DNA of 64,000 nucleotides from a virus (lineage: Duplodnaviria > Heunggongvirae > Uroviricota > Caudoviricetes), in IMG/VR virus record IMGVR_UViG_3300028602_000005, positions 82,137 through 146,136 of that record; one strand, given 5' to 3'. How positions within the stretch are numbered: the first letter of the stretch is position 1; every line of letters begins with the position of its first letter. The notes beneath the pieces were generated by a model, which saw nothing but the letters and a program-made list of their open reading frames with translations, ran no database searches and had not been told where the DNA came from. This document shows positions 13,899-57,708 of this stretch, piece after piece. The position numbers and the translations under genes were made by a program.

Positions 13899-15839
13899 AT
13901 GGCAGATCAAACTTGGACTGATGAAACTGTAGTAGTTTCGCTTAATGTTGGAAGTGGTATCTCTAACGGAATAATTAGTAGTGATAATTTCGGTGTTATT
14001 TATTATGTATCAGCATCTTTTGAAAATAGATATCAAATATTTGCTTTAAATAGTAATCTTTTATCATGGAATAGTGCTGGAAGTAGTTTTGATTATTACT
14101 TTGATTTTGCTTTATCTATTGCTAATATAGTTAATGGAGTTCCTATTTATTTTTATCCTTGGGCAATATACTCAGGATCAAATGTTGGAAGTATTAATAC
14201 TATTTCAAATACACATCATTATCCAAATTATAGATTAGAATGTATTTCAACCTCTACATCAACATTTGATTTAAAACTTCAATATTGGAACGGATCTTCT
14301 TTAATTTTAGATAGAACTATTTTAAGCGCATTAAGTGAAAATGTTTATTATGGGGTAAATATTACATTTGATACTTCTGTTGGTAATGGAAGATTTATTA
14401 TAGATATTTTTAATAAAACAACAAATGTTCAAATATGTCATTATACATATGATCTTCTAACCACAATAAATTTTACAAAAACATATGAATTTTCAACTTT
14501 ATATCTTACTTCAAGTACATCATCTGCTTCAGCAACAACAAGATATTTTGAAAAAAGAACTGCGACTAAAATAGAAGACACATATTATGATGAACTCCAA
14601 GATGCTGTAAATGCTTGGCAAACTGCTTATGGATTAACAAATTCAACTTGGACACAAGATGAGCCAGATACAGATGATTCAATTTTGGAAGTCACAACTC
14701 TTGAATTGGAAACGGCAATTGAATATTTAGAATTTTTGGCTGGAAAAACATCAAGTTTATATAAAATTTCAGGAACAAAAACAAATTCAAATTTAGATTT
14801 AACGACTTTTACAGAAGTTGATCCAGATGGAATTTTAACAATCGCAAGTAATTCTTTAACAGCGACAGGATCTTCTTCAGCTAATGAAAATTATGTTTAT
14901 AAAGATTTTGGGGTTGGTTATTTTAATAATTTTTGTATAGATTTTAAAATAAATGCTTCATTTTTTAATTTAGGCGCATATGCTTTAGGTTTCACAAATG
15001 ACAATAGTTCAGATATAAGATCGGTAAGTGGAACATATATAGGGTTATCTTTCTGGTCTGGACTTGGATCTGCCGGTATGCTTCAATATACAACAGCACA
15101 TAGAATAAATCTGAATTTAAATACAGATTATTATGTGAGATTTATTAAAATAGATTCTTTTAGTACATATGGGCAAATTTTTTGTTTTGTTTATAGTGAT
15201 TCAAGATATAATACTTTAGTTAATTATTTTACGGCTTATTTAACTGAACCATATGGAATTTCTTATAGATATTTATATATCTATTCTGATGTAAATGGAA
15301 TTGGAACAAATACTCAATTTGTTTCATCAGATTATAAAATCAGAAATTTAAATTCAATTGATTTTCATGATTTAGAATTATTAAGATATAAAGTAAATTT
15401 ATTACAATCGACATATTGTTATTTATGTGACACTTGTGACACTGAGACTTGTGATTGTAATCCCGCTTGTAATGTTGACGGATGTGATTGTGACGGAATT
15501 TGCGATACAGACACATGTACTTGTCATGGGACTTGTAATAGTGATGGATGTACTTGTCATGGGTTATGTAATGGAGATACTTGTACAAATTGTAACGCAT
15601 CATGTTATTCTTATTCAAAAGTTTGTGTTCTTTGTTATTTTTCATGTTATTCTGACGCATGTACTTGTAATGGATCTTGTAATGGTGATTCATGTACTTG
15701 TCATGGTGAATGTAATTCAGACTCATGTACTTGTAATTCTGGGTGTGATAATGATGTCTGTAGTGTTTGTAATGGATCTTGTAATGTTGAAGGATGTACA
15801 AAATGTGACGGAACTGCTTATCGATATCCTTGGACCTAA
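13899..15839 (+). CDS. Putative virion protein with C-terminal Cys-rich repeat tail (candidate radical SAM substrate A)
   Basis: Beta-rich, lectin-like body. ELQDAVNAWQTAY and LELLRYKVNLL helices. About 35 Cys in 12 units, ending YRYPWT. Confidence 0.75.
   Translation: MADQTWTDETVVVSLNVGSGISNGIISSDNFGVIYYVSASFENRYQIFALNSNLLSWNSAGSSFDYYFDFALSIANIVNGVPIYFYPWAIYSGSNVGSINTISNTHHYPNYRLECISTSTSTFDLKLQYWNGSSLILDRTILSALSENVYYGVNITFDTSVGNGRFIIDIFNKTTNVQICHYTYDLLTTINFTKTYEFSTLYLTSSTSSASATTRYFEKRTATKIEDTYYDELQDAVNAWQTAYGLTNSTWTQDEPDTDDSILEVTTLELETAIEYLEFLAGKTSSLYKISGTKTNSNLDLTTFTEVDPDGILTIASNSLTATGSSSANENYVYKDFGVGYFNNFCIDFKINASFFNLGAYALGFTNDNSSDIRSVSGTYIGLSFWSGLGSAGMLQYTTAHRINLNLNTDYYVRFIKIDSFSTYGQIFCFVYSDSRYNTLVNYFTAYLTEPYGISYRYLYIYSDVNGIGTNTQFVSSDYKIRNLNSIDFHDLELLRYKVNLLQSTYCYLCDTCDTETCDCNPACNVDGCDCDGICDTDTCTCHGTCNSDGCTCHGLCNGDTCTNCNASCYSYSKVCVLCYFSCYSDACTCNGSCNGDSCTCHGECNSDSCTCNSGCDNDVCSVCNGSCNVEGCTKCDGTAYRYPWT
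15417..15815 (+). repeat. CxCxxxCxxDx / CxxCxxxCxxDx coding repeat
   Basis: For example CTCHGTCNSDG-CTCHGLCNGDT-CTNCNASCYSY. Confidence 0.95.
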
Positions 15840-15873: not shown

Positions 15874-18213
15874 ATGGCTTATCAAACTTTTACAGATGAT
15901 TTAAAAACTGTTTATGATATTTCACAATATGGAACTATTTTTATTGAAAATATATTTAATTGTCGAATAGATGATTCTTATTATAGATGTGATCCTAATG
16001 GATATGGTGATCAGGGATATATTGATGAAAATGAATCAGTATTTTTTAGAATATCTGAAAAAACAGAAAAAATATCATGGTTAAATCCTTTCATTTCTTT
16101 AAATGGTATTGGATCTGATGAAAAGAAAAGTGGATATATAAAACAATATAATTATAAAGATACATTTTCTTGTTTATTTAAATTTGATATTTTTAGTACA
16201 TCTGATTCAACGGGTGAAATTTATTTTGGATTTTCAAATAGAGAAGGATTTTTAAAAGATTTTAATGATAATTATTTAAGTTTAATTATGGGTAAAATAA
16301 AATGTGAAGATAATAATTTTAAATTATCTATAGTTAATCAATACGGAAATACTTTTAATGAAACAGAATCATATATAACATTAAATTATGATACCATTTA
16401 TTATATCCAATTTTCAAAAAAATATAATACTTTTAGTTCTCATGACTTTAAAATAAGTGTTTTTAATTCATCAGAAGAATTTATAGATTCAATAAGTATT
16501 AATTTTAATCACAATATTTCTTTTGAAGGATTTTATTATAAAAATTCATATTTTTATTATTTTATGTATCCTCATGATACAAATCTTTCAGATAAAAAAG
16601 TAAATGGATGGTTTTTAGAACATACATTTTTTCCTGTTTCAGAATATAATTTTAAAAAATCAACTTATTACGGTGAATTACAAAATGCGGTAAATGCTTG
16701 GGAAACAGCATATAATATAAATAATACAAATTGGACATATTCAAATAATGATCCAAGCTCAAATGCAGTTTTTACATCTGTTTTAGAATTAAGAGGGGCA
16801 TTAGATAATTTACATGATAATTTGGCTTCACCATATTGGCCACATGAAACATGGGCTACAGATATTTCTTATGATTTGAGTTCAGCGGGTGAGAAAGATA
16901 ATTTAAATAGAATTTCATATAATTCAAACTCAATAATTTCATCTTTTATAGATGTTTATGATGATGGATATATAGCTGGAAATATTCCAGAATTAACTGA
17001 TTTCTTTTATAAATTTTCATTTAAATACACATCAGAAATAGGGAATCCTATATATATGATAACACCATTAATTACTCTTTCAAAAAATTATGTTGGTGGT
17101 GTTTTTTCTTTATGTTATAATAATATTGCTTTTGTTTCAGTTATTTTATATAATTCAACTTCAGATTCAAGACCGAAAATAGGAATTGTCAGAAGTGATG
17201 GAAATTATTACTACGGTTCAGTTTATTTATCATATAATACAACATACTATGTAAAATTCTTTAGAAATATAAATATAGGACCATTTGGGAGATATTTCAT
17301 TTATATTTATAGTGATAGTAATTATAATAATTTAATTGACGGGGTAACTATTTACGGAAGTGAAGTTTCAAATTTTGAAGATCTTAGATTTGATGTTTTT
17401 TCAGCGGTAAATGGAATGAATGGTCATTGTTTTATAAGACCTGTTAATATTTATAATGTACAACATAGTGTTTCTAATCCAAATAATTTTCAATCTTATA
17501 CTTTAGAAAACTTGAGAACAGTTATGAATAATTTACAGATAAGTCATTGTTATTTATGTGATTCTGGTGATTATCTCTCATCATGTTCTTGTGATGGATC
17601 TTGTAATTCAGACACATGTTCTTGTGATGGAGTATGTAATGGAGACACATGTTCTTGTAATGGGACTTGTAATGGGGATATTTGTTCAAATTGTTACTCA
17701 TCATGTTATTCTTATTTAAAAAGTTGTAGTTTATGTGATCACTCCTGTTATAATGACACTTGTATTTGTAATGGAATTTGTAATTCAGACTCATGTTCTT
17801 GTAATGGGACTTGTAATGGAGATACTTGTTCTTGTGATGTAGAGGGAGGATGCTCAACAGACTCATGTGATTGTGACGGATCTTGTAATGGAGACTCATG
17901 TTCTTGTAATATTGGGTGTAATTCTGACGGATGTGATTGTAACGCCTCTTGTAATGGGGATGCGTGTTCAAATTGTTATTCATCATGTTACTCTTATGAT
18001 GGAAAAAATTGTTATCTTTGTAATATGTCTTGTTATTCTGATGTTTGTACTTGTAATGGAATTTGTAATTCAGACTCATGTTCTTGTGATGGGTCATGTA
18101 ATTCTGATACTTGTTCTTGTGATGGGTCATGTAATTCTGATACTTGTTCTTGTTATTCAGAAGAAAGTTGTATTCAATGTAATGCGACTGTTTATAGATA
18201 TCCTTGGTCATAA
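15874..18213 (+). CDS. Paralogous putative virion protein with longer Cys-rich repeat tail (candidate substrate B)
   Basis: ELQNAVNAWETAY and LENLRTVMNNL match 13899. About 54 Cys in about 18 units, ending YRYPWS. Confidence 0.75.
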   Translation: MAYQTFTDDLKTVYDISQYGTIFIENIFNCRIDDSYYRCDPNGYGDQGYIDENESVFFRISEKTEKISWLNPFISLNGIGSDEKKSGYIKQYNYKDTFSCLFKFDIFSTSDSTGEIYFGFSNREGFLKDFNDNYLSLIMGKIKCEDNNFKLSIVNQYGNTFNETESYITLNYDTIYYIQFSKKYNTFSSHDFKISVFNSSEEFIDSISINFNHNISFEGFYYKNSYFYYFMYPHDTNLSDKKVNGWFLEHTFFPVSEYNFKKSTYYGELQNAVNAWETAYNINNTNWTYSNNDPSSNAVFTSVLELRGALDNLHDNLASPYWPHETWATDISYDLSSAGEKDNLNRISYNSNSIISSFIDVYDDGYIAGNIPELTDFFYKFSFKYTSEIGNPIYMITPLITLSKNYVGGVFSLCYNNIAFVSVILYNSTSDSRPKIGIVRSDGNYYYGSVYLSYNTTYYVKFFRNINIGPFGRYFIYIYSDSNYNNLIDGVTIYGSEVSNFEDLRFDVFSAVNGMNGHCFIRPVNIYNVQHSVSNPNNFQSYTLENLRTVMNNLQISHCYLCDSGDYLSSCSCDGSCNSDTCSCDGVCNGDTCSCNGTCNGDICSNCYSSCYSYLKSCSLCDHSCYNDTCICNGICNSDSCSCNGTCNGDTCSCDVEGGCSTDSCDCDGSCNGDSCSCNIGCNSDGCDCNASCNGDACSNCYSSCYSYDGKNCYLCNMSCYSDVCTCNGICNSDSCSCDGSCNSDTCSCDGSCNSDTCSCYSEESCIQCNATVYRYPWS
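17548..18182 (+). repeat. CxCxxxCxxDx / CxxCxxxCxxDx coding repeat
   Basis: For example CSCDGSCNSDT-CSCDGVCNGDT-CSCNGTCNGDI. Confidence 0.95.
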
Positions 18214-18249: not shown

Positions 18250-19272
18250 ATGATAATTGTAAATGATTTTGAAATTAAAGATTCAATTTTAGGAAATGAA
18301 AATAATCTTACTTTTGGAATTTTTAGTGGTCCTGTTATAAGTAATAATAAGTTATCTTTGTCTCCTGAATTTGATTATATGTTAAATTATATAAAGCCTT
18401 TGGTTGATAAAGTTATTTATGTTGTTGTTATAGATTCTTGTGTAAATCTAGAATCTTCAATTGAGAAAAATCAAATTATAGATTTTAGTGCTTTAGAAGA
18501 TTTAACAAATGATAATTTTAAAAATAATATAGATTATTGTTTAGTTATTAATAATTTAAAAACAGATAGTGATTATATTTTATCAAAATTAACTGAAATA
18601 AATTCAGTAAAAACAACATCTAAATATGATGGAAGTTATGGATGGTTTGGATTAAATTATAGAATTTTTAAAGCATTAAATAATTTGAGCATCAATAATA
18701 ATATTTGTATTGGATTTAAATCAAAAAATGATTTATTTAGAGTTATTGGTGAATATAAAGCATATGAAGAATTTAGAAATAGTGGAAATTATTTATTTAG
18801 TAATACAAGTAATCCTGGAAAAAGATTAGTGACTCCTTTATTGAGAGATGTTGATGGATTATTACCTTCATCATTTGTAGAAAATGAAGAAATTCATAAT
18901 ATAAGATTAAATCTTAAAAAATATATGGAATCTGTTTCTTTTGAAGATAAAACAGTAAGAGATTTTATTGAAGAAGTTAATAAAAATTTAGATAGACATA
19001 ATATTAATTATAAGTATTTTGTTACATTTGATGATTTTGAATTATTTGTAAGAGGAACAGTTGATTTATCAAAAGTAAATAAAGGTTGTATGAGAGTTAT
19101 TTATGGAACTGATAATTTATCAGATCCTTATTGGGAAGAGATTAAATTTATAGGATTAGATGAGAATAAATGGTTTAATATTGTAACATTATCAGATATA
19201 GATTTAACAAAATTTTCTGTTAATACTCTTCCATATTTATATGAAAAACAAATTATTGAGAAAGGAATATAA
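18250..19272 (+). CDS. Degenerate pantoate-beta-alanine ligase (PanC)-like fold protein 1
   Basis: PLLRDVDGLLPSS resembles PanC PxxRxxDGLAxSS, and ICIGFKSKNDLFRVI resembles ACFGEKDxQQLxxI. The N-terminal HxGH motif is absent. Confidence 0.55.
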   Translation: MIIVNDFEIKDSILGNENNLTFGIFSGPVISNNKLSLSPEFDYMLNYIKPLVDKVIYVVVIDSCVNLESSIEKNQIIDFSALEDLTNDNFKNNIDYCLVINNLKTDSDYILSKLTEINSVKTTSKYDGSYGWFGLNYRIFKALNNLSINNNICIGFKSKNDLFRVIGEYKAYEEFRNSGNYLFSNTSNPGKRLVTPLLRDVDGLLPSSFVENEEIHNIRLNLKKYMESVSFEDKTVRDFIEEVNKNLDRHNINYKYFVTFDDFELFVRGTVDLSKVNKGCMRVIYGTDNLSDPYWEEIKFIGLDENKWFNIVTLSDIDLTKFSVNTLPYLYEKQIIEKGI

Positions 19273-20782
19273 AAAATTGAAAGAAATTGAATTTCCAAAA
19301 CCAAGAGCTTGTACTATTGATTTAACTGAAGGTTGTAATCTGGCGTGTGACTACTGTTTTACCCATTCTCTTCATAATAGAAAAGTAATCTCTGAAGAAA
19401 TGGGTAAAACAATCATAAGATTATGGCTTGAAAAAACAGATTATCAAAATAGAAATGATGTAGAGATAGGATTTTGGGGTGGAGAACCCTTATTAGAATT
19501 TGATTTATTAAAAAAATTAGCTAATTACACAAAAGAGATTACTGAAAATAAAGTTGATAAATTCTCTATTACGACAAATGGCACTTTATATACAGAAGAA
19601 ATTGTCGAATGGAGTCTTGAAAATAAAATGGCATGTTTAATATCATTAGATGGAAATGAAGAATCTCATGATATGCATAGAAAATTCAAAAATGGAAAAG
19701 GTTCATGGAAAGTTATTGATTCTAATATTAGAAAAGCAATGAAAATTAATCCTAATCAAAGAGTCAGAGTTTCAATTGCTGCCGATACTCTTCATTTATT
19801 ATATGATTCATTTATTTATATTATAGAAGATTTGGGAATTAAATCATTTGCTTTTTCTCCTGTTTTCGAAGGTGATTGGAATCAAGAAAACTGGAAACTT
19901 TTAGAATATCAATTTAATAGATTTGCTGATTATACAATAAAAGAAGCTAAAAAAGGAAATCATATTATATTGAAACATTTTAAAGATGAAATGATTAATG
20001 GAGGAAATTTAAAAGAAAAACAAAATCCATGTGGTGCTGGAAATGGATATTCAGCATGGAGTGTTGATGGAATTCAATTTCCATGTCATAGATTTAATAA
20101 ACATGGATTATCAACAGAAGAAAGATTAAAATCACCATTTGTCATAGGGAGAATTATAGATAATAAATATTTTATGTATAATGAGGCAAGAGAACCTTTT
20201 GTTTCATTTAAAGATAAGACACCAATAAAATGTGAAGTCTGTAATATATTTAGAAGATCATCATGTGTTGGAAATTGTTATGCGGTAAATTATGATTTAA
20301 CTGGTGATATTAATGTATCTCCAGATGTTTGTTGTACATTTAATAAAATTCAACATAAAATTGGTATGAGATTAGAAAGAGAATATAGAGATAATAATAT
20401 TAAGATGCCATTTGAGACTGTTAGAGATAAGAAAAATACTCCTTCTGGTTGTGTTTGTTATAATATGTGTTATGCAGAAGGGACAGAAAATGAAATAATT
20501 CATTTTGATAAAAGAAATAATGGAACATGTAATTGTTATCAAGTTTCTTATTCAGATAATATAGGATTTGAAAATTCAAGGAAAAAAAATGAAATTCAAA
20601 AAGATGATGATATGTTAAAAACATTTTTGAATTTGTCAAAGAAAATCTTAGCAAATAATGATAAAATTGATAACAAAACTAAAGAGATGAAAGATCTTGA
20701 AAATGATGTTTTATCTAAAACAATTGGTTTGTTAGAAAGAAAAAATGAATGTAAAGGAGAATGTTGTAAATGCAAGAAGTAG
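19241..20782 (+). CDS. Radical SAM/SPASM maturase 1 with extra C-terminal Cys motif
   Basis: CNLACDYC, FWGGEPLL, TTNGTL, ISLDG..HD..R. SPASM CGAG..FPCHRF..CEVC....SCVGNC. An alternative TTG start at 19277 follows AAAGGA. Confidence 0.95.
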   Translation: MKNKLLRKEYKKLKEIEFPKPRACTIDLTEGCNLACDYCFTHSLHNRKVISEEMGKTIIRLWLEKTDYQNRNDVEIGFWGGEPLLEFDLLKKLANYTKEITENKVDKFSITTNGTLYTEEIVEWSLENKMACLISLDGNEESHDMHRKFKNGKGSWKVIDSNIRKAMKINPNQRVRVSIAADTLHLLYDSFIYIIEDLGIKSFAFSPVFEGDWNQENWKLLEYQFNRFADYTIKEAKKGNHIILKHFKDEMINGGNLKEKQNPCGAGNGYSAWSVDGIQFPCHRFNKHGLSTEERLKSPFVIGRIIDNKYFMYNEAREPFVSFKDKTPIKCEVCNIFRRSSCVGNCYAVNYDLTGDINVSPDVCCTFNKIQHKIGMRLEREYRDNNIKMPFETVRDKKNTPSGCVCYNMCYAEGTENEIIHFDKRNNGTCNCYQVSYSDNIGFENSRKKNEIQKDDDMLKTFLNLSKKILANNDKIDNKTKEMKDLENDVLSKTIGLLERKNECKGECCKCKK

Positions 20783-21894
20783 ATTTTAAAACAATGACTT
20801 TAGGAGAAAAAATAGATTTTGAAATGGGAGAGGAAGATGGAAGAAAAACAGGATGTAAGGGATTTGAAACATATCCTTTATTCTGGATTAATATGTTTTT
20901 AAATTATACTTGTACTAGAAGTTGTACTAATTGTTTTGCTGGTGGTGGAAAAAATAATTTCGTAATGCCAGATGATGTTTATAATAGATTATTAAATTGG
21001 TTAGTAGAAGTTTATAATCTTCATGGATTTAAGTATTCTTGTTTTGTTTATTTGGGTGGTGAACCTCTTTTAGAATTTGATAAAATTGTTGGGATAATGG
21101 AACATATGGAAAAAAATAATGTTCAAGGGGTTTATCACCATATTTCATCTAATTTTGATTTGATTGATAAAATAGATTTGAATAGATTAGTTTATCCTTC
21201 TTTAATGTCTTTTAATATAACAGATTTATCATTTGATGAAGTTTCGAAAAGATCAAAATATTTTGGTAAAATGAAAAATGTAGTTCAACAAGAAGTTAAA
21301 TTAACAGCATATGAATCTAATCTCCCAAGATTAAAAGAATTAGCAGAATTTGGAATTTCAAATGGATTTAGAGTAAGAATTTATAGAGATCAAACACAAC
21401 ATTCAAATGAAGAATATAAAACTAAATTTATAAAAGCTCTGCATGAATATTTAGATGTTTTTGAAAAATATATTGAAAAGGGATATCATACAAATGTAAA
21501 ATATGTTATTCTTGATGCTTTAATTCCAAATGTTCCAAATAGAACTTGTGGGAGAGCAAATCTTAATGTTTATCCAGATGGATCTGTCGGTCCTTGTATA
21601 AGAGCTTTAGATGATATTAAAGGAACATTATGGACACCGAATCCTTTAAAATTAGCTTTAGATGAAAAATATATTTATTCTTCAAATTCAAAATATTGTC
21701 ATGATGATTGTAGAGAATGTAAAGTTAAACATACATGTAAAGGTGGATGTCCTTATGATAAATCTTTGGCTTATGGTGAAATTAAAGAAGGGATGAAAAG
21801 TCCTTGGTGTAGAGTTTATAAAGAAATTGTCCCAAGAATTGATAAAATTGCAAATAAAAATAGAAAAGGGAATTCAATTACAATAGGGATTTAA
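20770..21894 (+). CDS. Radical SAM/SPASM enzyme 2 (divergent)
   Basis: CTRSCTNC, YLGGEPLL. SPASM TCG..VYPDGSVGPC..CRECKVKHTCKGGCP..WC. Confidence 0.92.
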   Translation: MQEVDFKTMTLGEKIDFEMGEEDGRKTGCKGFETYPLFWINMFLNYTCTRSCTNCFAGGGKNNFVMPDDVYNRLLNWLVEVYNLHGFKYSCFVYLGGEPLLEFDKIVGIMEHMEKNNVQGVYHHISSNFDLIDKIDLNRLVYPSLMSFNITDLSFDEVSKRSKYFGKMKNVVQQEVKLTAYESNLPRLKELAEFGISNGFRVRIYRDQTQHSNEEYKTKFIKALHEYLDVFEKYIEKGYHTNVKYVILDALIPNVPNRTCGRANLNVYPDGSVGPCIRALDDIKGTLWTPNPLKLALDEKYIYSSNSKYCHDDCRECKVKHTCKGGCPYDKSLAYGEIKEGMKSPWCRVYKEIVPRIDKIANKNRKGNSITIGI

Positions 21895-21906: not shown

Positions 21907-22929
21907 ATGAAAATTTTAACAGTTGATAATATACATGATAGTGATTTATTTTCAGATGATGTTAAAACGATTGGAGTTTTAATTTTATTAATGGTTGATT
22001 ATGAATATCTTTTTTTAAGTAAAAATTTTTTAAATAAGATAAATATGATTAAACCAATGGTTGATAAAATGGTTTGTTTATTTTCTCCGACATGTAATGT
22101 TTATTCAAATAATATAACAAATAAAGATGTTAAAAAAAATATAATTCAAGATCCAGATTATCTTAAATCTAAAAGTGAAGAGAACTTTAAAATTCTGGAA
22201 GAAAATATAGATTATATTTCATTTAATAATTTTTCTTATTCAAGAACCGAAGAAATAGAAAATATAATTAAAACTTTAGATATAGATACAATAAAATTAA
22301 AACAAAGTTTATTTATAGAAAGTTATCCAGTATCAAGTATTGAAAATGTTTTTAGATTTCTTCCTGAAGAAAAAACAATTGTTTTTAGAGATAAAAATTT
22401 TATGTTAAATCATTGGATAAATGAATTTCAATTAAAAAGACAAATAAGACATGAATATAATCTTAATTTATTTAAATCAGTTGGGAGAATTATTCTTCCA
22501 ACTTTTAGAGATGATAGTGGATTAATTTGTTCAGAAGGTGAAAATGATCATTCTATTCTGTCAGAAGAAATAACTAATGCTTTAATTAATTTAAAGTCAT
22601 ATCTTAGAGATTATAATGTAATTAATAAAACTCTTAAAGAAATTACTTTAGATTTGAATAAAAACATTCCATTAAAAATAGAAGATTCAAAATATTTTGT
22701 TTTTTGTGCAAATCTTGAAAATTCATTATTGAATACTTATGAAAATAAAATAATAGATTTTGAAAAAGGATATGTTGTTGTAAGAATATATAAAGAAGGT
22801 TCTCCTATTGTTAATGAAGTAAAATTTATAGGATTAGATGAAAGTAAATTTTTTGATTTAGAAACTGTAAATGATATTAATGAAGAAATCACTAAAGATA
22901 ATTTACTTAATTTTGCAAAATGGGATTAG
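21907..22929 (+). CDS. Degenerate PanC-like fold protein 2 (paralog of 18250)
   Basis: IVFRDKNF and LPTFRDDSGLICS resemble PanC motifs. Shares KP(L/M)VDK and E(I/V)KFIGLDE with 18250. No HxGH. Confidence 0.55.
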   Translation: MKILTVDNIHDSDLFSDDVKTIGVLILLMVDYEYLFLSKNFLNKINMIKPMVDKMVCLFSPTCNVYSNNITNKDVKKNIIQDPDYLKSKSEENFKILEENIDYISFNNFSYSRTEEIENIIKTLDIDTIKLKQSLFIESYPVSSIENVFRFLPEEKTIVFRDKNFMLNHWINEFQLKRQIRHEYNLNLFKSVGRIILPTFRDDSGLICSEGENDHSILSEEITNALINLKSYLRDYNVINKTLKEITLDLNKNIPLKIEDSKYFVFCANLENSLLNTYENKIIDFEKGYVVVRIYKEGSPIVNEVKFIGLDESKFFDLETVNDINEEITKDNLLNFAKWD

Positions 22930-24419
22930 AAAGGAAAATAAATATAATGAATGATGATTTTGAAATTCCACATCAAAGTTCATGTACGATAGATTTAACA
23001 GAAGAATGTAATATGGCATGTGATTATTGTTTTACACATTCTCAACATAACAAAAAAGTTTTATCTGAAGAAATGGGTAAAAAAATAATTGATCTTTGGT
23101 TTTTAAATGTTATGTTAGATTCTTCTTCTAATAAAACTCCAAATATTTCATTTTGGGGTGGAGAACCATTATTAGAATTTGAATTAATGAAAAAACTTAT
23201 TAAATATGGAGATGAAATATCTAATAATACACTTACATATGGTGGAACTACAAATGGAACTTTATACACAGCAGAAGTCGCTGAATGGTGTTTAAAAAAT
23301 AAATCTCCTATGTTAGTTTCATCTGATGGTGTTGAAGAAGCTCATGATAAACACAGAAAATTCAAAAATGGAAGAGGGACTTGGAAAGTAATAGATAAAA
23401 ATTTAAGAGAAATTGTTAAATTCTTTCCAAAACAAAAAGTTAGATTATCTATATCAACAGATAACTGTCATTTGTTTTATGATTCTTTTTTATATTTTAT
23501 TGAAGGTTTGGGAATGAAGGAATTTTCTTTTTCTCCTGTTTTTGAAGATGATTGGACAAAAGAAAAATTTGATATTTTAGAAGAACAATTTAATAAATGT
23601 ATTGACTATATTTTAAAGGAAGCTAAAAGAAATAATTTTATAGATTTAAAACATTTTACAGATATAATGTTAAGAAATGGATCAGAACAGATTATAAGAA
23701 ATCCATGTGGTGCTGGAACTGGTTATTCTGCTTGGTCTATTGAGGGATTACAATTTGCATGTCAAAGATTTAATAAACATGGTTTATCATTAGAAGAAAA
23801 GTTAAAATCTCCTTTCCTTATAGGAAGGATAAAAGATGATAAATATGAAATATATAGAGAACCAAGACAGCAATTTATTAATTTTAAAGATAAATTAGAG
23901 GATAGGTGTGGTCATTGTTCGCTATTAAAAAATTCAAATTGTTATGGAAATTGTTTTTCTGTTAATTATGATTTAATGGGAGATATTAATAAAACTCCAA
24001 AAGTATGTTGTGATTTTAATAAACTTCAAAATGATATGGGATTAAAATTAAGAAAATTATTTGATGATAATAAAATTATTCACCCTAAAATGAAACAAAA
24101 ACAAATTAAAAATGGATGTGGTCTTTGTTATAATATGTGTTATTCTGAGGGAACAGATGAAGAGATTACAATAATAGATAGAAGAAAAAATCATTATTGT
24201 AATTGTGATGTTATTGAATATTCAGATAATCTTAAAAGATTAAATTGTAGATCTATTAAAGAAATTGATGATGATAGTAAAAAATTATTTAAATCATTAG
24301 AGACATGCAAAAAGATTTTAGAAACTAGAGATATGAATAAAAGAGAAGACTTAATTAAAATGGAAGATAAAGTCTTCAATGATACAATAGAATCAATAAA
24401 AAAATTCACAAAAAAATAA
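22920..24419 (+). CDS. Radical SAM/SPASM maturase 3 (close paralog of 19241)
   Basis: CNMACDYC, FWGGEPLL, TTNGTL. CGAG..FACQRF..CGHC....NCYGNC, plus C-terminal CGLCYNMCYSE. Confidence 0.95.
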   Translation: MGLERKINIMNDDFEIPHQSSCTIDLTEECNMACDYCFTHSQHNKKVLSEEMGKKIIDLWFLNVMLDSSSNKTPNISFWGGEPLLEFELMKKLIKYGDEISNNTLTYGGTTNGTLYTAEVAEWCLKNKSPMLVSSDGVEEAHDKHRKFKNGRGTWKVIDKNLREIVKFFPKQKVRLSISTDNCHLFYDSFLYFIEGLGMKEFSFSPVFEDDWTKEKFDILEEQFNKCIDYILKEAKRNNFIDLKHFTDIMLRNGSEQIIRNPCGAGTGYSAWSIEGLQFACQRFNKHGLSLEEKLKSPFLIGRIKDDKYEIYREPRQQFINFKDKLEDRCGHCSLLKNSNCYGNCFSVNYDLMGDINKTPKVCCDFNKLQNDMGLKLRKLFDDNKIIHPKMKQKQIKNGCGLCYNMCYSEGTDEEITIIDRRKNHYCNCDVIEYSDNLKRLNCRSIKEIDDDSKKLFKSLETCKKILETRDMNKREDLIKMEDKVFNDTIESIKKFTKK

Positions 24420-50993: not shown

Positions 50994-52085
50994 CTAAAGA
51001 ACCACAGCTTCGGACGTTTTATTTTTAGAGTTTAGTCCACGATCTCCACTAGTAACCGAATTCTTTTGTGAAAACAAAAGAATGTTTTTTGCTCCGTTCA
51101 AATCTGCATTTTGTCTTGAGTTACAACTGTTACATACTAGTAAGCTTTGTTTTGGTCTATTTGTATTTGTACTTCCACAAATAGAACAAGTTCTACTAGT
51201 ATATGCAGGATTGATTTTCTTAACTAAAATGCCCTTATTTGAACATGAATTTTCTAGAAAATTTGAGAACATCGAATACGGAAAACAACTATTCATTAAA
51301 TAGTTTAAATTTTTCCCTTTTGATGTTCCATTTTTTCTAGAAAAGGATTTTCTAATATTTTTCAAATCTTCTATTACCAAGTAACCTACTTGATGTGAAA
51401 ATAGATAATTTGAGATATCAGAAGCTAACTTTCTAATGTAACCATTTGACCAGTTTTGGATAAAAATTTGTTTTTTATATTTTCGATAATTTAACTTTTT
51501 ATGGATGTAAAGTTTTAAATTAAATTTTTTACCATCAGACAAATAAATGTTTTTCAAATTTATATCAAGTGCTAATGTTTTTGAGAAATTATTTTTAATA
51601 TCCTCAACTTCACAATTAAAAAATACTTTAAAATATTTTCCATTATTTTTTGGAATTAACTCAATTCTCTTAATTTTCTTAGAAGTTTTTAATTTCTCAA
51701 TAATTCGTTTTCCTTTCAAAGGAAAATTAATTCTGAAAAAACGCAAAAAACAATTAAAATATTTATCTTCAAATTTTAAATTAAAAGATTGATAATCTAA
51801 AATTATTGGAACTTCAATTTTCTTTGTATTCTTTAAACGTTTTGATTTAACTGATGATAAAACTTTATCTCTAATTTGTTGAAACAATTTGGTATTCATA
51901 TCAGGATATTTTTGTTTTAGAAGAAAATAAGTATTTTTATGAACTTCTGATTTTCTATATTCTTTATTTATTTTGATATAATTAAGAATAAAATCGGAAA
52001 CTTCCTGACAATCGAAATAAATAGAATTTAAAAATTCAATTTTTCCTTTATTTCCAACTAAATTAAGAGAAAAAGTTTTAATCAT
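50994..52085 (-). CDS. tnpB: RNA-guided endonuclease TnpB
   Basis: RuvC LALDINL / VIEDL / NADLNGAKNI and zinc ribbon TSRTCSICG..CNSC. Confidence 0.92.
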   Translation of the reverse strand: MIKTFSLNLVGNKGKIEFLNSIYFDCQEVSDFILNYIKINKEYRKSEVHKNTYFLLKQKYPDMNTKLFQQIRDKVLSSVKSKRLKNTKKIEVPIILDYQSFNLKFEDKYFNCFLRFFRINFPLKGKRIIEKLKTSKKIKRIELIPKNNGKYFKVFFNCEVEDIKNNFSKTLALDINLKNIYLSDGKKFNLKLYIHKKLNYRKYKKQIFIQNWSNGYIRKLASDISNYLFSHQVGYLVIEDLKNIRKSFSRKNGTSKGKNLNYLMNSCFPYSMFSNFLENSCSNKGILVKKINPAYTSRTCSICGSTNTNRPKQSLLVCNSCNSRQNADLNGAKNILLFSQKNSVTSGDRGLNSKNKTSEAVVL

Positions 52086-52468
52086 TTTATTTCATCTTCC
52101 TGCTTTCTTATGTAATCTAAAATTTTGTCTTGAGATACATTACCAACAGTTGAAACAAAATAACCAGAAGACCAAAAACCTGAATTCCAATAATATTGGT
52201 TTCTAATTAATGGAAAAGTTTTAAAAATATTATAAGATGAAATAACTTTTAAATTTCTTATAACTGAAGAAACAGAATAAGTTGGTTCTAATTCTAAACA
52301 AATATGAATATGTTCTGGTTCTATATCAAAACCAAGAATTTTGTAATTATACTTAGAACAAATAGTTATAATTTGTTTATTTAGAAAAGTTTTTAAATCA
52401 TTTTGTAAAATTCTTCTTCTATATTTAGTACAGAATACAATATGGTATTTTAATTCTGATTTATACAT
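52082..52468 (-). CDS. tnpA: Y1 (HUH) transposase TnpA
   Basis: YHIVFCTKYRR, PEHIH, FWSSGYFVSTVG, YI..Q. Confidence 0.95.
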   Translation of the reverse strand: MYKSELKYHIVFCTKYRRRILQNDLKTFLNKQIITICSKYNYKILGFDIEPEHIHICLELEPTYSVSSVIRNLKVISSYNIFKTFPLIRNQYYWNSGFWSSGYFVSTVGNVSQDKILDYIRKQEDEIK

Positions 52469-53459: not shown

Positions 53460-54470
53460 ATGAATTTTTCCGATACTCAAATTGTAAGTACCCTTCCTGT
53501 TTTTGATTCATCTCTTCATTTGAATTCAAGAGTTTTTGCATTAGATGATGGAATTTTTTATTTCGGTGGATCAAGAATGTGGGTTCCTTTAAATGGAATT
53601 GTATTAGAATTAAATGCTGGTGAAAATATTTCAAAGGGTCAGCCTGTCTATTTGAGTGCTCTTAATACAGTAATGAAAGCTAGTTCTAGTTCTGAATCAA
53701 CATCAAATGTAATAGGAGTTGCGGCTGAAACAAGGACAACAGGACAATCAATCACAATATTTGGAGATGGGTGTGTCTTAAAAACTGCTTTAATTGGGGC
53801 AACATATGGAACAAGATATTATTTATCAGAAACAGCGGGAGTATTTGTAACAACATTAACTACAGAAAATCAAAGAGTTCAAGTTGGTTTTTCAATAAAC
53901 GCAACAGATTTTAAAGTTTCAATTGAATATAATACTGAAACAAATGTTACATCTGGGACTATTGCTTTTTGGCCAGATGAAACTCCTCCTGATGGGTGGC
54001 TTGAATGTGACGGTTCAGCATTATATAGCGGAGAATATTTATCTTTATATAATGCTATTGGGGATTTATATGGAAATGGAATAGATAATAGATCAGTTGG
54101 ATCAGAAGGAAATGAAGATTTTAATATCCCTGACTATAGAGGATTACTTTTAAGAGGTGTTGATGGTGGAGCAGGAGTAGATGAAAATGCTGAATTTGAT
54201 AGATTTGGAACTGTTGGAAATTCTGAAACTTTTATGACAGGAAGTTCTATTGATGATGGTGATAATTTAGGGACATATCAAGCAGCAGAAATGAAAGATC
54301 ATTATCATAAAGGATCTTTTATTTGGAATGAATATCCTGGAGCAACACATAACTCTTCAAGCGGTATACGTCTTGTTTTTTTACCCCATTATAATTATTC
54401 AACTTCAAATAGAAATTATAGTATTGATAATGCGAGAAATATTTCTTTAATGATTATTATAAAAATATAA
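53460..54470 (+). CDS. Phage tail-collar domain protein 1
   Basis: GTIAFW....PDGWLECDG..Y..LY.AIG..YG..FNIPDYRG. Confidence 0.88.
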   Translation: MNFSDTQIVSTLPVFDSSLHLNSRVFALDDGIFYFGGSRMWVPLNGIVLELNAGENISKGQPVYLSALNTVMKASSSSESTSNVIGVAAETRTTGQSITIFGDGCVLKTALIGATYGTRYYLSETAGVFVTTLTTENQRVQVGFSINATDFKVSIEYNTETNVTSGTIAFWPDETPPDGWLECDGSALYSGEYLSLYNAIGDLYGNGIDNRSVGSEGNEDFNIPDYRGLLLRGVDGGAGVDENAEFDRFGTVGNSETFMTGSSIDDGDNLGTYQAAEMKDHYHKGSFIWNEYPGATHNSSSGIRLVFLPHYNYSTSNRNYSIDNARNISLMIIIKI

Positions 54471-54490: not shown

Positions 54491-55906
54491 ATGATAGAAA
54501 TTGTTACAACATTACCTACATTCGATTCTTCTTTACACAAAAATAGAATCTTATATCCCACAGATGAAAAAATTAATTATTATGGACATACAGAATACAA
54601 TGTATGGATTCCATTAAGTGGAAAAACATATAATTTATACACATCAGATGAAATAACCACAAATAAAGTCGTTTATATTGATGATGATGGATTTTTATAT
54701 ATAAGTGATAATTCAGATTCTGATACTTTAAATGTAATAGGAATTACGGTTACTTTAGGATCATATGGTTCAAAGGTTTTAGTTTTTGGAGAAGGGTGTA
54801 TTTTAAAAAATATTTTAGTTGGGGCAACAGTTGGTTCATCATATTATTTGGGAACAAATGGGGTATTAACATCATCAATGCCTTTAGAAAATGTTGTCAA
54901 AATTGGAACTGCGATAAATTCTACAGATTTAAAAATAGAAATTCAGACTCCTTCATTATCTTCATCTGTCCCTACAGGAACAATAATTCCGTGGGCATCA
55001 GATACAATTCCTGATGGGTGGTTAGAATGTAATGGTGCTGCCGTTTCAAGTTCAGATTTTCGAAATCTTCATTCTTTTTTATCAGATAAATATGGAAATG
55101 GATCTTCAAATGAACAATATTGGGATAGAAATGATTGTGTTTCATATAATGGGTGTGATTGTGATGTAGAATGTTATGTTGACTCATGTTCTTGTGATAC
55201 CGCTTGTGACTCTTATGAGGGAATTGTTAACACTATTACTCCTATATGTACTACGTGTTATCCAGCAGGTTTTACTGGATGTTTTGCTTGTAATAGTATT
55301 AAAGATATTGGAATAGACGCATGTACTCAATATATGGCGGTTACTGATGCTGATTGTGAAGAATGTTATAATGTTTGTTATCCTGACGTTTGTACTTGTG
55401 AAGGAAATTGTTATACAGACACATGTTCACAATGTTTTTCACAATGTCATCCAGATAACTGTTCCGTTTATACTACTGATCCTGATTATGGAACAGAAGA
55501 TTTTAATGTCCCAGATTTAAGAGGATATTTTATCAGAGGATGGAATAATGGTAAAACTCTTTATAATGGGGTTATTCACTATAGAGGTGGAGATCCATCA
55601 CTCCCAAATGATATAGTCCAATATAGAGATCCAGACTGTTTGACTAGATCAGCGTATAATGTCACCGGATCAAATATTTCAAGTGGTGATAATATAGGGA
55701 CAATTCAAGATTCTGAATTTTCTTCTCATTCTCATGTATATACACAGCATTGTGGTGGAGCAAGCACAATTCCAGGTTATCCTCAAACTTATGACGGAAA
55801 TGTTTATCCTTATGCAAATGCGACTTATAAAGAAACAAATCAACTTTCAAGTATAAATGAAACTAGACCATCTAATATATCTGTTCGTTTTATTATAAAA
55901 ACATAA
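54491..55906 (+). CDS. Phage tail-collar domain protein 2 with inserted Cys-rich repeat
   Basis: PTGTIIPW..PDGWLECNG..KYG, then 22 Cys, then FNVPDLRGYFIRG..ETRPSNI. Confidence 0.88.
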   Translation: MIEIVTTLPTFDSSLHKNRILYPTDEKINYYGHTEYNVWIPLSGKTYNLYTSDEITTNKVVYIDDDGFLYISDNSDSDTLNVIGITVTLGSYGSKVLVFGEGCILKNILVGATVGSSYYLGTNGVLTSSMPLENVVKIGTAINSTDLKIEIQTPSLSSSVPTGTIIPWASDTIPDGWLECNGAAVSSSDFRNLHSFLSDKYGNGSSNEQYWDRNDCVSYNGCDCDVECYVDSCSCDTACDSYEGIVNTITPICTTCYPAGFTGCFACNSIKDIGIDACTQYMAVTDADCEECYNVCYPDVCTCEGNCYTDTCSQCFSQCHPDNCSVYTTDPDYGTEDFNVPDLRGYFIRGWNNGKTLYNGVIHYRGGDPSLPNDIVQYRDPDCLTRSAYNVTGSNISSGDNIGTIQDSEFSSHSHVYTQHCGGASTIPGYPQTYDGNVYPYANATYKETNQLSSINETRPSNISVRFIIKT

Positions 55907-55922
55907 AAAAGGAAAATTATAA

Positions 55923-57101
55923 ATGATAGATTTTTCAACGAAAATTTATGACGATTTACCAGTATTTAATTCGTCAACTGATAAAAATAGAGAAATATTT
56001 GTTAAAAATGAATCTACATTTTACATCGGTTGTTTTGATGATGATTTATGGATTCCTAGAGGGTTAAATGTTTTAAAATTACAAGCAGGTGAGAGTATTA
56101 CAATCGGAAATGTAGTTTATTTAACTGGAAATAATACTGTTTCAAAAGCTGATGCTGATTTATCAAATTGTAATCCAATTGGAATCGCTATGACTTCAGC
56201 GACAATAGGAAATTCAGTTTACGTTTTTGGAAATAAATGTATTGCTTATGATGTTTTAGTTGGAGCAACTCCAGGTCAGATTTATTATTTATCTCAGACA
56301 TCTGGAGCATTAACAACAACAAATCTTATAGGAACTGCCAATGTAATACAAATAGGGATTGCAAAAAATTCAACAGATTTAATAATCAATATTAAAACAG
56401 ACACAATGACTGGAATAAAATCAGGAACAATTGTAATGTGGCCAGATGAAAATATTCCTAATGGTTGGCTTGAATGTGATGGATCTGATTTAGACAGTTC
56501 TGAATATCAGGCTCTTTATGCAATTTTAGGAACAAAATTTGGAAGTGGAGATGGTGGAGATAATGATTTTAATCTTCCAGATTTGAGAGGTGTTTTTATA
56601 AAAGGTTGGGATAATGGAAAAGGAAGAGATTTATATGCAAGTGAAGTCACTTTAAATGGAACATTTACAAATGGATCAAATATAATAACAAATGTTTCTG
56701 GGGGTGTTTTATCAGATGTTTTGATAGGGTCATATATTAATGAGAATAGTTGTGTTGTCGATTTCGCAATAATTACTGGTGTTAGTGGAAATACAATAAC
56801 TTTAAATACTAACGCTATATTTACAAGCACAAGAAACTTCGGTGTTTCAAATAGATATGATAGAGGAGATGGAACATTTGGAGATCATGTCGGAACTTAT
56901 CAACACGATGGATTTTCAGAACATCTTCATTCATATAATGACAGTACATTCCAAATAAGTTCTAATATTTCTGTAGGTTATTGGTATATACATGGGGAAG
57001 GAACTTCAGCAAGTTCATATACTTTTGACAGTGATACTGATCCTGGTGGAAAAGAAAACAGACCTAAAAACATATCAATGATGTATATAATAAAAATATA
57101 A
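55923..57101 (+). CDS. Phage tail-collar domain protein 3
   Basis: GTIVMW..PNGWLECDG..FNLPDLRG.FI.G..ENRPKNI. Confidence 0.88.
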   Translation: MIDFSTKIYDDLPVFNSSTDKNREIFVKNESTFYIGCFDDDLWIPRGLNVLKLQAGESITIGNVVYLTGNNTVSKADADLSNCNPIGIAMTSATIGNSVYVFGNKCIAYDVLVGATPGQIYYLSQTSGALTTTNLIGTANVIQIGIAKNSTDLIINIKTDTMTGIKSGTIVMWPDENIPNGWLECDGSDLDSSEYQALYAILGTKFGSGDGGDNDFNLPDLRGVFIKGWDNGKGRDLYASEVTLNGTFTNGSNIITNVSGGVLSDVLIGSYINENSCVVDFAIITGVSGNTITLNTNAIFTSTRNFGVSNRYDRGDGTFGDHVGTYQHDGFSEHLHSYNDSTFQISSNISVGYWYIHGEGTSASSYTFDSDTDPGGKENRPKNISMMYIIKI

Positions 57102-57120: not shown

Positions 57121-57708
57121 ATGAAAGTTTATTGTTATAGTAAAGAAACAAAAGAATTCTTAGGAGAGAAAGAAGCAAATATTAATCCTTTAAAATCAAA
57201 AAGAGTGGGAAAACCTTCTTATTTTATTCCCCCAAATTCAACAACAATAGATCCTCCAAAACTTAAAGAAAATCAAATTGCTATTTTTAATATGGAAAAA
57301 AGAGAATGGGAAGTAAAAGATGATTATAGAGGATATATTTATTATACATTTGAAGGGGAACAAAATGTTATAACTAAAATTGGAGAAATTCCTGATAAAA
57401 AATATCCTACATTTCTACCACCACCTCAAACAATGATAAAACCTTATTGGAATTTGGAGAAAAAAGAGTGGGATGAAATGGCATTAAAATTTAGAGGTAT
57501 TCCAGTTTTGAGTAGAGATAGTGTAAATAGCGTAATAGATCAACTAATTTCGAATTTAAATGAGAAACAGATTCTTTCTGAAAAATTAATTGCAAACGAT
57601 AAAGGTGAATCTTATCCTCCTTGGGATGAATTTGTTCAAAAAAGAAATGAAATTTTAACTGAAGGTAGAGCTTTTAAAGATACTTACTTTCCATTATCAG
57701 AAGAATAA
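57121..57708 (+). CDS. Tail fibre assembly (Tfa-like) protein
   Basis: VYCYS.ET.EFLG..P...IP.NST..PP..W....DYRG. Confidence 0.7.
   Translation: MKVYCYSKETKEFLGEKEANINPLKSKRVGKPSYFIPPNSTTIDPPKLKENQIAIFNMEKREWEVKDDYRGYIYYTFEGEQNVITKIGEIPDKKYPTFLPPPQTMIKPYWNLEKKEWDEMALKFRGIPVLSRDSVNSVIDQLISNLNEKQILSEKLIANDKGESYPPWDEFVQKRNEILTEGRAFKDTYFPLSEE

Follow-up and report, generated by a model that had tools for sequence, protein, structure and literature searches.

Must the presumed cysteine (Cys)-repeat targets of phage radical S-adenosylmethionine (SAM) enzymes be dedicated proteins encoded beside those enzymes, or can such a repeat be built into a tail protein encoded elsewhere? The question is raised by a 64,000-nucleotide stretch of tailed-phage DNA (the window; positions 82,137 to 146,136 of IMG/VR record IMGVR_UViG_3300028602_000005, Caudoviricetes), part of one 254,910-bp virus record with 25% G+C and a genome total of 765 open reading frames (ORFs). 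In the window, three radical SAM/SPASM enzymes (rSAM1, rSAM2 and rSAM3) are encoded next to two proteins, A and B, that end in Cys repeats, and the middle one of three tail-collar paralogs (collar paralog 2, P0001) contains a Cys-repeat module, hereafter the insert. Radical SAM thioether stapling is known for small secreted peptides of the ribosomally synthesised, post-translationally modified class (RiPPs) and for few cellular proteins (QHNDH; CrpA), and a literature search found no publication on radical SAM modification of phage virion proteins. The new elements in this case are a module grafted internally, into the domain loop of a protein recognisably like gp12, its distance of 31 kb from the enzymes, and the recurrence of both features elsewhere.

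The insert and its collar protein

Three-way alignment of the collar paralogs gives P0001 about 128 to 130 extra residues, from S205 to about Y333, between conserved G202/G204 on the left and G334-x-x-D337-F338-N339-x-P341-D342 on the right. The two paralogs have loops of 16 and 9 residues at this site. A sequence-only reading of the window had located a Cys-rich loop insert with 22 Cys at 55136-55462 and short loops in the flanking paralogs; its coordinates are exact, its Cys strings are all present, and the alignment bears out both points. These nucleotides correspond exactly to core residues 216-324, which hold all 22 extra Cys in 109 amino acids (aa), while the remaining 340 residues of P0001 have four and the two paralogs two and five. 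Given a genome Cys frequency of 1.4%, the binomial probability of 22 Cys in 109 aa is 5e-19. All 22 are encoded by TGT, as in A and B.

The insert is composed of five regular units (three 11-mers and two 12-mers), all fitting the logo of the wider family, and an irregular 45-residue centre (Table 1). Every unit keeps three Cys as well as polar residues at positions 4 and 10, and the insert contains eight C-x-x-[DE] motifs and one C-x3-E. It ends in ..CSVYTTDPDYG and lacks the terminal motif YRYPW or [KR]Y.P..W.

The host gene has a TAA stop and an upstream GGAG resembling a ribosome-binding site, and the three Collar paralogs are tandem and co-directional. All three match Collar (PF07484) above threshold, and likewise the PHROG tail-collar-fibre families (8e-29 for P0001 against tail collar fibre). 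The Pfam match of P0001 (54.3 bits, cutoff 24) is limited to positions 1-43 of the 57-position model, since the domain is interrupted by the insert; the second half (FNVPDLRG) is recognised in the paralog alignment. Insert-free P0003 matches the C-terminal structures of T4 gp12 (1OCY/1PDI, E ~2e-8) and a second short tail fibre (9CUY, 3e-9), and the top three Foldseek hits of the P0001 model are T4 gp12 with a probability of 1.0 and low TM-scores. Residues H413 and H415 (HxH), N462-I463-S464 and I468-I469-K470 (C-terminal NIS..IIK) are invariant in the three paralogs. P0001 thus shares with T4 gp12 and other Collar proteins (PF07484; PDB 1OCY, 1PDI, 5IV5) the collar motif, the HxH motif and the NIS..IIK C-terminus, but differs in its Cys-rich insert, which is absent from known collar proteins. 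Stop-codon recoding was rejected as an influence on these genes: the four genes all end in TAA and have no in-frame stops.

The spacing between GWLxCDG and FxLPDxR is 25-30 aa in 109 of 114 Collar homologues and 155 aa in P0001, and the Cys module is absent from the 113 other homologues. One of these, P0080 (438 aa), has about 95 additional aa at this site that are free of Cys and unrelated to the module. The collar loop therefore tolerates insertions and is a recurrent insertion site in collar proteins. AlphaFold with a 74-row alignment models the collar on both sides of the insert with a pLDDT score (predicted local distance difference test) of 84-94 and the insert at 31-42, without secondary structure; a single-sequence model of P0001 reaches a pLDDT of 32. 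A search of the ESM Atlas gave no usable look-alike.

An assembly chimera is ruled out, since an independently assembled 280-kb ENA contig carries an identical P0001 gene; the insert is thus not an artefact of one assembly. Over 7,416 positions the two assemblies differ by four single-nucleotide polymorphisms. The collar genes contain none of these; all four lie inside an IS200/IS605-type pair (50994-52468, minus strand) located about 1 kb upstream of the collar cluster and consisting of TnpA (Y1_Tnp, 1.9e-38) and a TnpB-like protein (Cas12f1-like TNB domain, 1.5e-18).

The insert lies between two copies of the 7-nt direct repeat TATGGAA. Their starts are 396 nt apart, exactly 132 codons containing the insert, and a deletion between them would give a short YG-TEDFN loop. 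The pair is only suggestive: it may be an in-frame recombination scar or have arisen by chance (rough chance estimate ~0.02).

Kinship with proteins A and B and portability

The repeats of A and B are built from 11-residue C-x-C-[NDH]-G-x-C-N-x-D-x units punctuated by 12-residue C-x-x-C-x3-C-Y-x-[YD]-x units. Composition-adjusted BLASTP aligns the insert to the repeat region of A with an E-value of 2e-8 and to that of B with 6e-7. All three share one layout, in which CxC units are followed by CxxC..Y.Y, a linker, CxxCxxxCYxD and further CxC units. In A and B, the segment that aligns with the centre of the insert is the CxxCxxxC-YSY punctuation unit, which is about 18 residues shorter. Genome-wide, A, B and P0001 are the only Cys-repeat-rich ORFs. 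A non-circular comparison used a hidden Markov model (HMM) of 22 modules from foreign phages and none from this genome: searched against the 765 ORFs, it retrieved B (5e-20), A (3e-9) and P0001 (2e-4, 16.5 bits), with the next ORF at 0.096. This match of the insert is weak but specific. Homology of the insert to the C-terminal Cys repeats of A and B is well supported, and the insert is a true third copy with the shared unit grammar that the sequence-only reading had proposed.

The grammar of the module reads C-x(1,2)-C-[DNE]-x-x-C-[YDH]-x-[DY]-x over 11 or 12 residues, and across the family the tandem units follow C-x(1,2)-C-x3-C-x4, position 4 being N/D/E and position 8 Y/N/D/H. Neither A, B nor the insert is matched by the repeat models of Pfam or NCBIfam. 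The DNA identity between the insert and B reaches at best 85% over 59 nt, and position 8 of the insert units is Tyr, His or Asp, as in the wider family, versus Asn in A and B. Given these differences and the longer centre, the sequences indicate that the copy is old rather than recent.

Two further observations concern A and B themselves. A database copy of B (P0124) has 768 aa versus 779 aa here, the difference being one 11-residue CSCDGSCNSDT unit near the C-terminus, so that the repeat number of B varies between near-identical assemblies of this phage. Directly upstream of A and B are collagen-like fibre proteins with Gly-Tyr-Ser/Gly-Ile-Ser triplet repeats, at 2-9370 (more than 3,100 aa) and 10874-13843 (989 aa).

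The module occupies different positions (N-terminal, internal, C-terminal and stand-alone), and the phage tail proteins that carry it are of five or more unrelated kinds. In other phages it is internal in a protein resembling central tail fibre J (PHROG 31, 4e-35), in a baseplate-like protein of 793 aa (two more modules are in the 362-aa protein beside it), and in a family of 550-740-aa fibres with 20 to 87 Cys per module. Tail-fibre protein P0131 has an N-terminal module, PHROG matches to tail fibre (1.7e-9) and tail collar fibre (5e-6), and a weak collar signature (Pfam Collar 17 bits, below threshold). No flanking motif common to the carriers was found. The terminal YRYPW motif is likewise absent from other internal modules and therefore defines the C-terminal and stand-alone subtypes only. 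Because unrelated tail proteins carry the module without shared flanks, its portability is well supported, and this distribution suggests that the enzymes read the repeat itself. The repeat had been described as a portable tag: the first word holds, but the second is too narrow for a full module with five units and an irregular centre that has diverged from A and B.

Radical SAM enzymes and their co-occurrence with the module

The rSAM operon lies upstream of the insert, and the end of rSAM3 (24419) is 30.7 kb from it, in agreement with the distance of about 31 kb first read from the sequence. PapB is the best family for rSAM1 and rSAM3, followed by the SCIFF thioether maturase, the CXXX-repeat maturase and QhpD, all below the equivalog cutoffs. 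The longest and best matches are to PapB (9e-64), SCIFF maturase (7e-49) and QhpD (2e-44 for rSAM1); weaker ones include sulfatase-maturase and cyclophane-forming models, and TIGR04463 matches only weakly (E ~5e-21). The partner genes X1 and X2 each precede a PapB-like rSAM gene. In the SCIFF-maturase model (451 positions) the match of the PapB-like phage enzymes starts near position 96, and in the PapB core model at position 4; they therefore lack the N-terminal SCIFF-maturase part, which we take to be the leader-binding RiPP recognition element (RRE).

After the SPASM domain, rSAM1 (20450-20550) and rSAM3 (24117-24220) have extensions with a substrate-like C-x-C-Y-N-M-C-Y-x-E-G-T and a second C-x-C-Y-N. 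These Cys motifs are kept in all eight aligned PapB-like phage enzymes (invariant C406, N408, C410, Y411, E413, T415, C430 and C432) and might serve as an internal pseudo-substrate or bind an additional cluster.

Table 1. Coordinates of the features of the window discussed in the text
Feature	Position (nt)	Strand	Evidence or remark
Protein A (646 aa)	13899..15839	+	35 Cys in last 146 residues; ends YRYPWT
Protein B (779 aa)	15874..18213	+	53 Cys in last 219 residues; ends YRYPWS
Partner X1 (340 aa)	18250..19272	+	No family match; overlaps rSAM1 start
rSAM1, PapB-like radical SAM/SPASM	19241..20782	+	NF047865 215.7 bits (cutoff 340); SCIFF maturase 7e-49
rSAM2, divergent radical SAM/SPASM	20770..21894	+	SPASM TIGR04085 40.3 bits (cutoff 27)
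Partner X2 (340 aa)	21907..22929	+	No family match; overlaps rSAM3 start
rSAM3, PapB-like radical SAM/SPASM	22920..24419	+	NF047865 196.8 bits (cutoff 340)
Collar paralog 1 (336 aa)	53460..54470	+	Short loop; Pfam, paralog alignment
Collar paralog 2 (P0001, 471 aa)	54491..55906	+	T4 gp12-like short-tail-fibre-type protein with insert
TATGGAA, left copy, codons Y201-G202	55091..55097	+	Left copy of 7-nt direct repeat; read from sequence
Cys-repeat module, residues 205-335	55103..55495	+	Absent from both paralogs; BLASTP to A/B; external HMM match
Units 1-2 (11-mers), residues 222-243	55154..55219	+	C-D-C-D-V-E-C-Y-V-D-S, C-S-C-D-T-A-C-D-S-Y-E; regex/unit parsing
Irregular centre, residues 244-288	55220..55354	+	CxxC-x7-CxxC-x10-C; alignments
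Units 3-5 (12-, 11- and 12-mer), residues 289-323, and closing Cys324	55355..55462	+	Unit parsing
TATGGAA, right copy, codons Y333-G334	55487..55493	+	Right copy; read from sequence
Collar paralog 3 (P0003, 392 aa)	55923..57101	+	Short loop; Pfam, paralog alignment, structure match
Tail-fibre assembly (chaperone)-like protein	57121..57708	+	PHROG 105, 4e-20

P0001 itself has no orthologue: a search of viral contigs for related loci found nothing, the only matches to the whole protein were one of its paralogs and Collar proteins of at most 38% identity, and a search with the insert alone among 5.8 billion protein clusters returned only itself. When 1.84 billion representatives were searched with a profile made from the three copies in the window, no more than seven foreign proteins came up. 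These were short proteins of the A/B type, repeat proteins standing alone, a fibre of 645 aa with the module inside it, and P0131. The three metagenomic carriers on contigs of at least 5.8 kb all adjoin a PapB-like rSAM gene; the four other profile-found carriers are on contigs of 4.3 kb or less and were counted neither way. P0131 is directly upstream of an rSAM gene, which is followed by a 292-aa gene and then a PapB-like rSAM gene.

IMG/VR was searched with a DNA pattern of two consecutive units, an earlier pattern of three bare CxCxxxC units having been dropped when it was swamped by poly-TGT and other simple repeats. This identified 13 true carrier contigs, 12 of which encode a related rSAM on the same contig: nine in the local region and three, PapB-like, about 33.5, 22 and 24 kb away. 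Distal carriers 22-34 kb from the rSAM gene thus recur in three other phage contigs. The only carrier without an rSAM is at the very end of a 7.6-kb fragment. The module is therefore not common in the absence of such enzymes: related radical SAM genes are present on 15 of 16 foreign carrier contigs of at least 5.8 kb, the carriers having been found without reference to the enzymes.

The complete IMG/VR genome G005 (locus L136, 37,736 bp, CheckV 100%) encodes a 208-aa stand-alone module protein with 48 Cys, and its sole radical SAM gene, 0.8 kb from the carrier, is of the rSAM2 type; it has no PapB-like gene. The constant partner of the module is therefore a radical SAM/SPASM enzyme of either operon type rather than a PapB-like one specifically, and the rSAM2 type may be the minimal partner.

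Viewed from the enzyme side, a carrier accompanies the closest PapB-like enzymes in 13 of 16 viral loci (no more than 10 kb away in ten, at 22-34 kb in three); the remaining three loci have none in the contig part examined. None of 62 loci with more distant radical SAM enzymes holds a carrier.

A metagenome scan added at least 40 further carrier loci, mostly short, with an rSAM in at least 13 of them; no collar motif was seen in any carrier among the metagenome matches listed. Records L298, L313, L256 and L289, which have a carrier and no enzyme in the part examined, were counted neither way. The residues at unit positions 8 (Tyr/Asn) and 10 (Asp/Glu or Tyr) showed no pattern with enzyme type among 27 records. 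The metagenome carriers L243, L310, L313 and L315 have many pattern matches and are split into adjacent ORFs under table 11, which may reflect stop-codon recoding or frameshifts in the repeat.

Proposed maturation in trans and alternatives

We propose that the exposed YG...FNxPDLRG loop of a short-tail-fibre-type protein, gp12-like and presumably trimeric, acquired a Cys-repeat substrate module by in-frame insertion. The phage radical SAM/SPASM enzymes encoded 31 kb away would recognise the repeat units post-translationally, not a leader peptide, and would join several Cys to neighbouring side chains through thioether (ranthionine-type) bridges that cannot be reduced. Each collar would thereby gain a rigid knob resistant to proteases and to redox change, and a trimeric fibre presumably three such knobs. 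The notion of a portable substrate cassette, recognised leader-free and thioether-stapled in trans, is one towards which we lean slightly, and trans-modification of the copy in the collar insert is plausible to much the same degree. We infer the modification of the insert, the thioether chemistry and the role of the knob, be it stabilisation or adhesion. Leader independence of the phage enzymes is plausible because the carriers share no flanking motif and the PapB-like enzymes lack the N-terminal SCIFF-maturase part; possibly, X1 and X2 are trans-acting recognition proteins. A more general proposal, in which the phage enzymes would be leader-independent staplers of the 11/12-residue Cys unit in any context and the module a portable "staple-here" cassette that phages place at the ends or in surface loops of any virion protein (collar fibre, J-like tip, baseplate, fibre shaft), matured in trans from a single enzyme locus, is tentative, and we give it somewhat less credence than its negation.

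Three known systems provide points of comparison. QhpD (TIGR03906) makes Cys-to-Asp/Glu thioethers inside the gamma subunit of quinohemoprotein amine dehydrogenase, and not in a peptide. It resembles the phage enzymes as a radical SAM/SPASM enzyme acting on a protein and in its match to rSAM1, but its target is a single dedicated subunit, small and free of repeats, that receives three links and is neither portable nor viral. It is cited as a protein-level precedent in PMC13692751. PapB, which acts on PapA (freyrasin ranthipeptide, NF047865), represents the best family of rSAM1 and rSAM3 and cross-links Cys-Xn-Asp/Glu with n = 0-6 (PMC9413430), a motif comparable to the eight C-x-x-D/E of the insert. 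PapB is also reported to act leader-free at C-termini (PMC12715619). The system described here differs in that its enzymes score below the 340-bit cutoff and are phage-encoded, no leader peptide is present, each unit has three Cys versus one per motif, and the substrate is a loop of a 471-aa predicted virion protein instead of a small secreted peptide. CrpC of Methanococcus voltae (radical SAM/SPASM, TIGR04463) puts ranthionine links on CrpA, a 29-kDa repeat protein with C-x-x-Q/D motifs (PMC13692751). Common to both cases are a large protein, a tandem Cys-rich repeat and low AlphaFold confidence for that repeat. However, CrpA has a C-terminal 17-residue repeat and an N-terminal leader-like region bound by the RRE of CrpC, and it is cellular and encoded adjacent to its enzyme, whereas the collar insert is viral and distal.

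Several points weigh against stapling of the collar insert. It is the most divergent of the three copies in the window (external profile 16.5 bits, E 2e-4), with only five regular units, Tyr instead of Asn at position 8 and no YRYPW end, and it is a singleton without an orthologue. AlphaFold gives it no confident fold (pLDDT 31-42), and the CxxC-x7-CxxC of its irregular centre could be a zinc site. The P0001 gene is in a different gene block from the rSAM enzymes, of which rSAM1 and rSAM3 are below the PapB equivalog cutoff (215.7 and 196.8 versus 340 bits). Finally, unit position 10 is across the family often Tyr rather than Asp/Glu, so that the acceptor residue, and even the chemistry, is uncertain.

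The first alternative is that the insert forms a metal-binding and/or disulfide knob untouched by the rSAM enzymes, which would act on A and B only; it would share ancestry with the A/B repeats and now fold around Zn or Fe, or become oxidised after lysis. The insert is 20% Cys with CxC/CxxC spacing reminiscent of metallothionein-like sites, has CxxC-x7-CxxC at its centre, lacks the YRYPW end of A/B-type substrates and is the weakest match to the family profile, and the HxH motif that serves as a metal site in related gp12-type fibres is conserved in P0001. Nevertheless, internal and stand-alone modules without YRYPW in other phages still co-occur strictly with the enzymes, distal ones included, and each unit of the insert retains its three Cys and the polar residues at positions 4 and 10. 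We regard this alternative as unlikely, although metal binding and partial stapling are not mutually exclusive.

Alternatively, the insert may be an rSAM substrate that receives another chemistry, such as Cys-Asn or Cys-Thr thioethers, Cys/Tyr cross-links or Cys oxidation. In units from other genomes, Tyr outnumbers Asp/Glu at position 10, and conservation is stronger at positions 4 (Asn/Asp) and 6 (Thr/Ser). None of the enzymes reaches an equivalog cutoff, sulfatase-maturase, QhpD and cyclophane-forming models match them as well, and two enzyme types are present, of which G005 has the rSAM2 type alone. However, the best and longest matches of the enzymes are all to thioether formers, and 87% of the units in this genome have Asp/Glu at position 10, making a different chemistry quite unlikely in our view.

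That the insert is a functionless recombination accident, by which A/B-like repeat DNA was captured in a permissive loop of a redundant paralog, is very unlikely: the existence of three paralogs, one of which would be free to drift, the bounding 7-nt direct repeat, the IS200/IS605 element nearby and the singleton status of the insert fit such an event, but the reading frame runs unbroken through its 471 codons and recurs unchanged in a second assembly, four further tail-protein families have comparable internal grafts, which favours a selected design, and all unit Cys have been kept while DNA identity to A and B decayed to at most 85% over at most 59 nt, which favours long retention under constraint.

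The Cys-repeat target is thus not confined to dedicated proteins beside the enzymes and can be embedded in a loop of a receptor-binding-type tail protein. P0001, with two natural insert-free paralogs as controls, is the cleanest substrate for testing whether such a loop is modified. If the insert is indeed a cassette stapled in trans, the signal for recognition would reside in the repeat unit itself, with no leader needed, and the module together with its enzymes would constitute a transplantable protein-stapling system, or a tag for protein engineering. Phage tail proteins would then carry non-reducible cross-links, which in harsh or reducing habitats bear on how stable the virions are and how hosts are recognised; these cross-links would represent a new class of enzymatic virion hardening.

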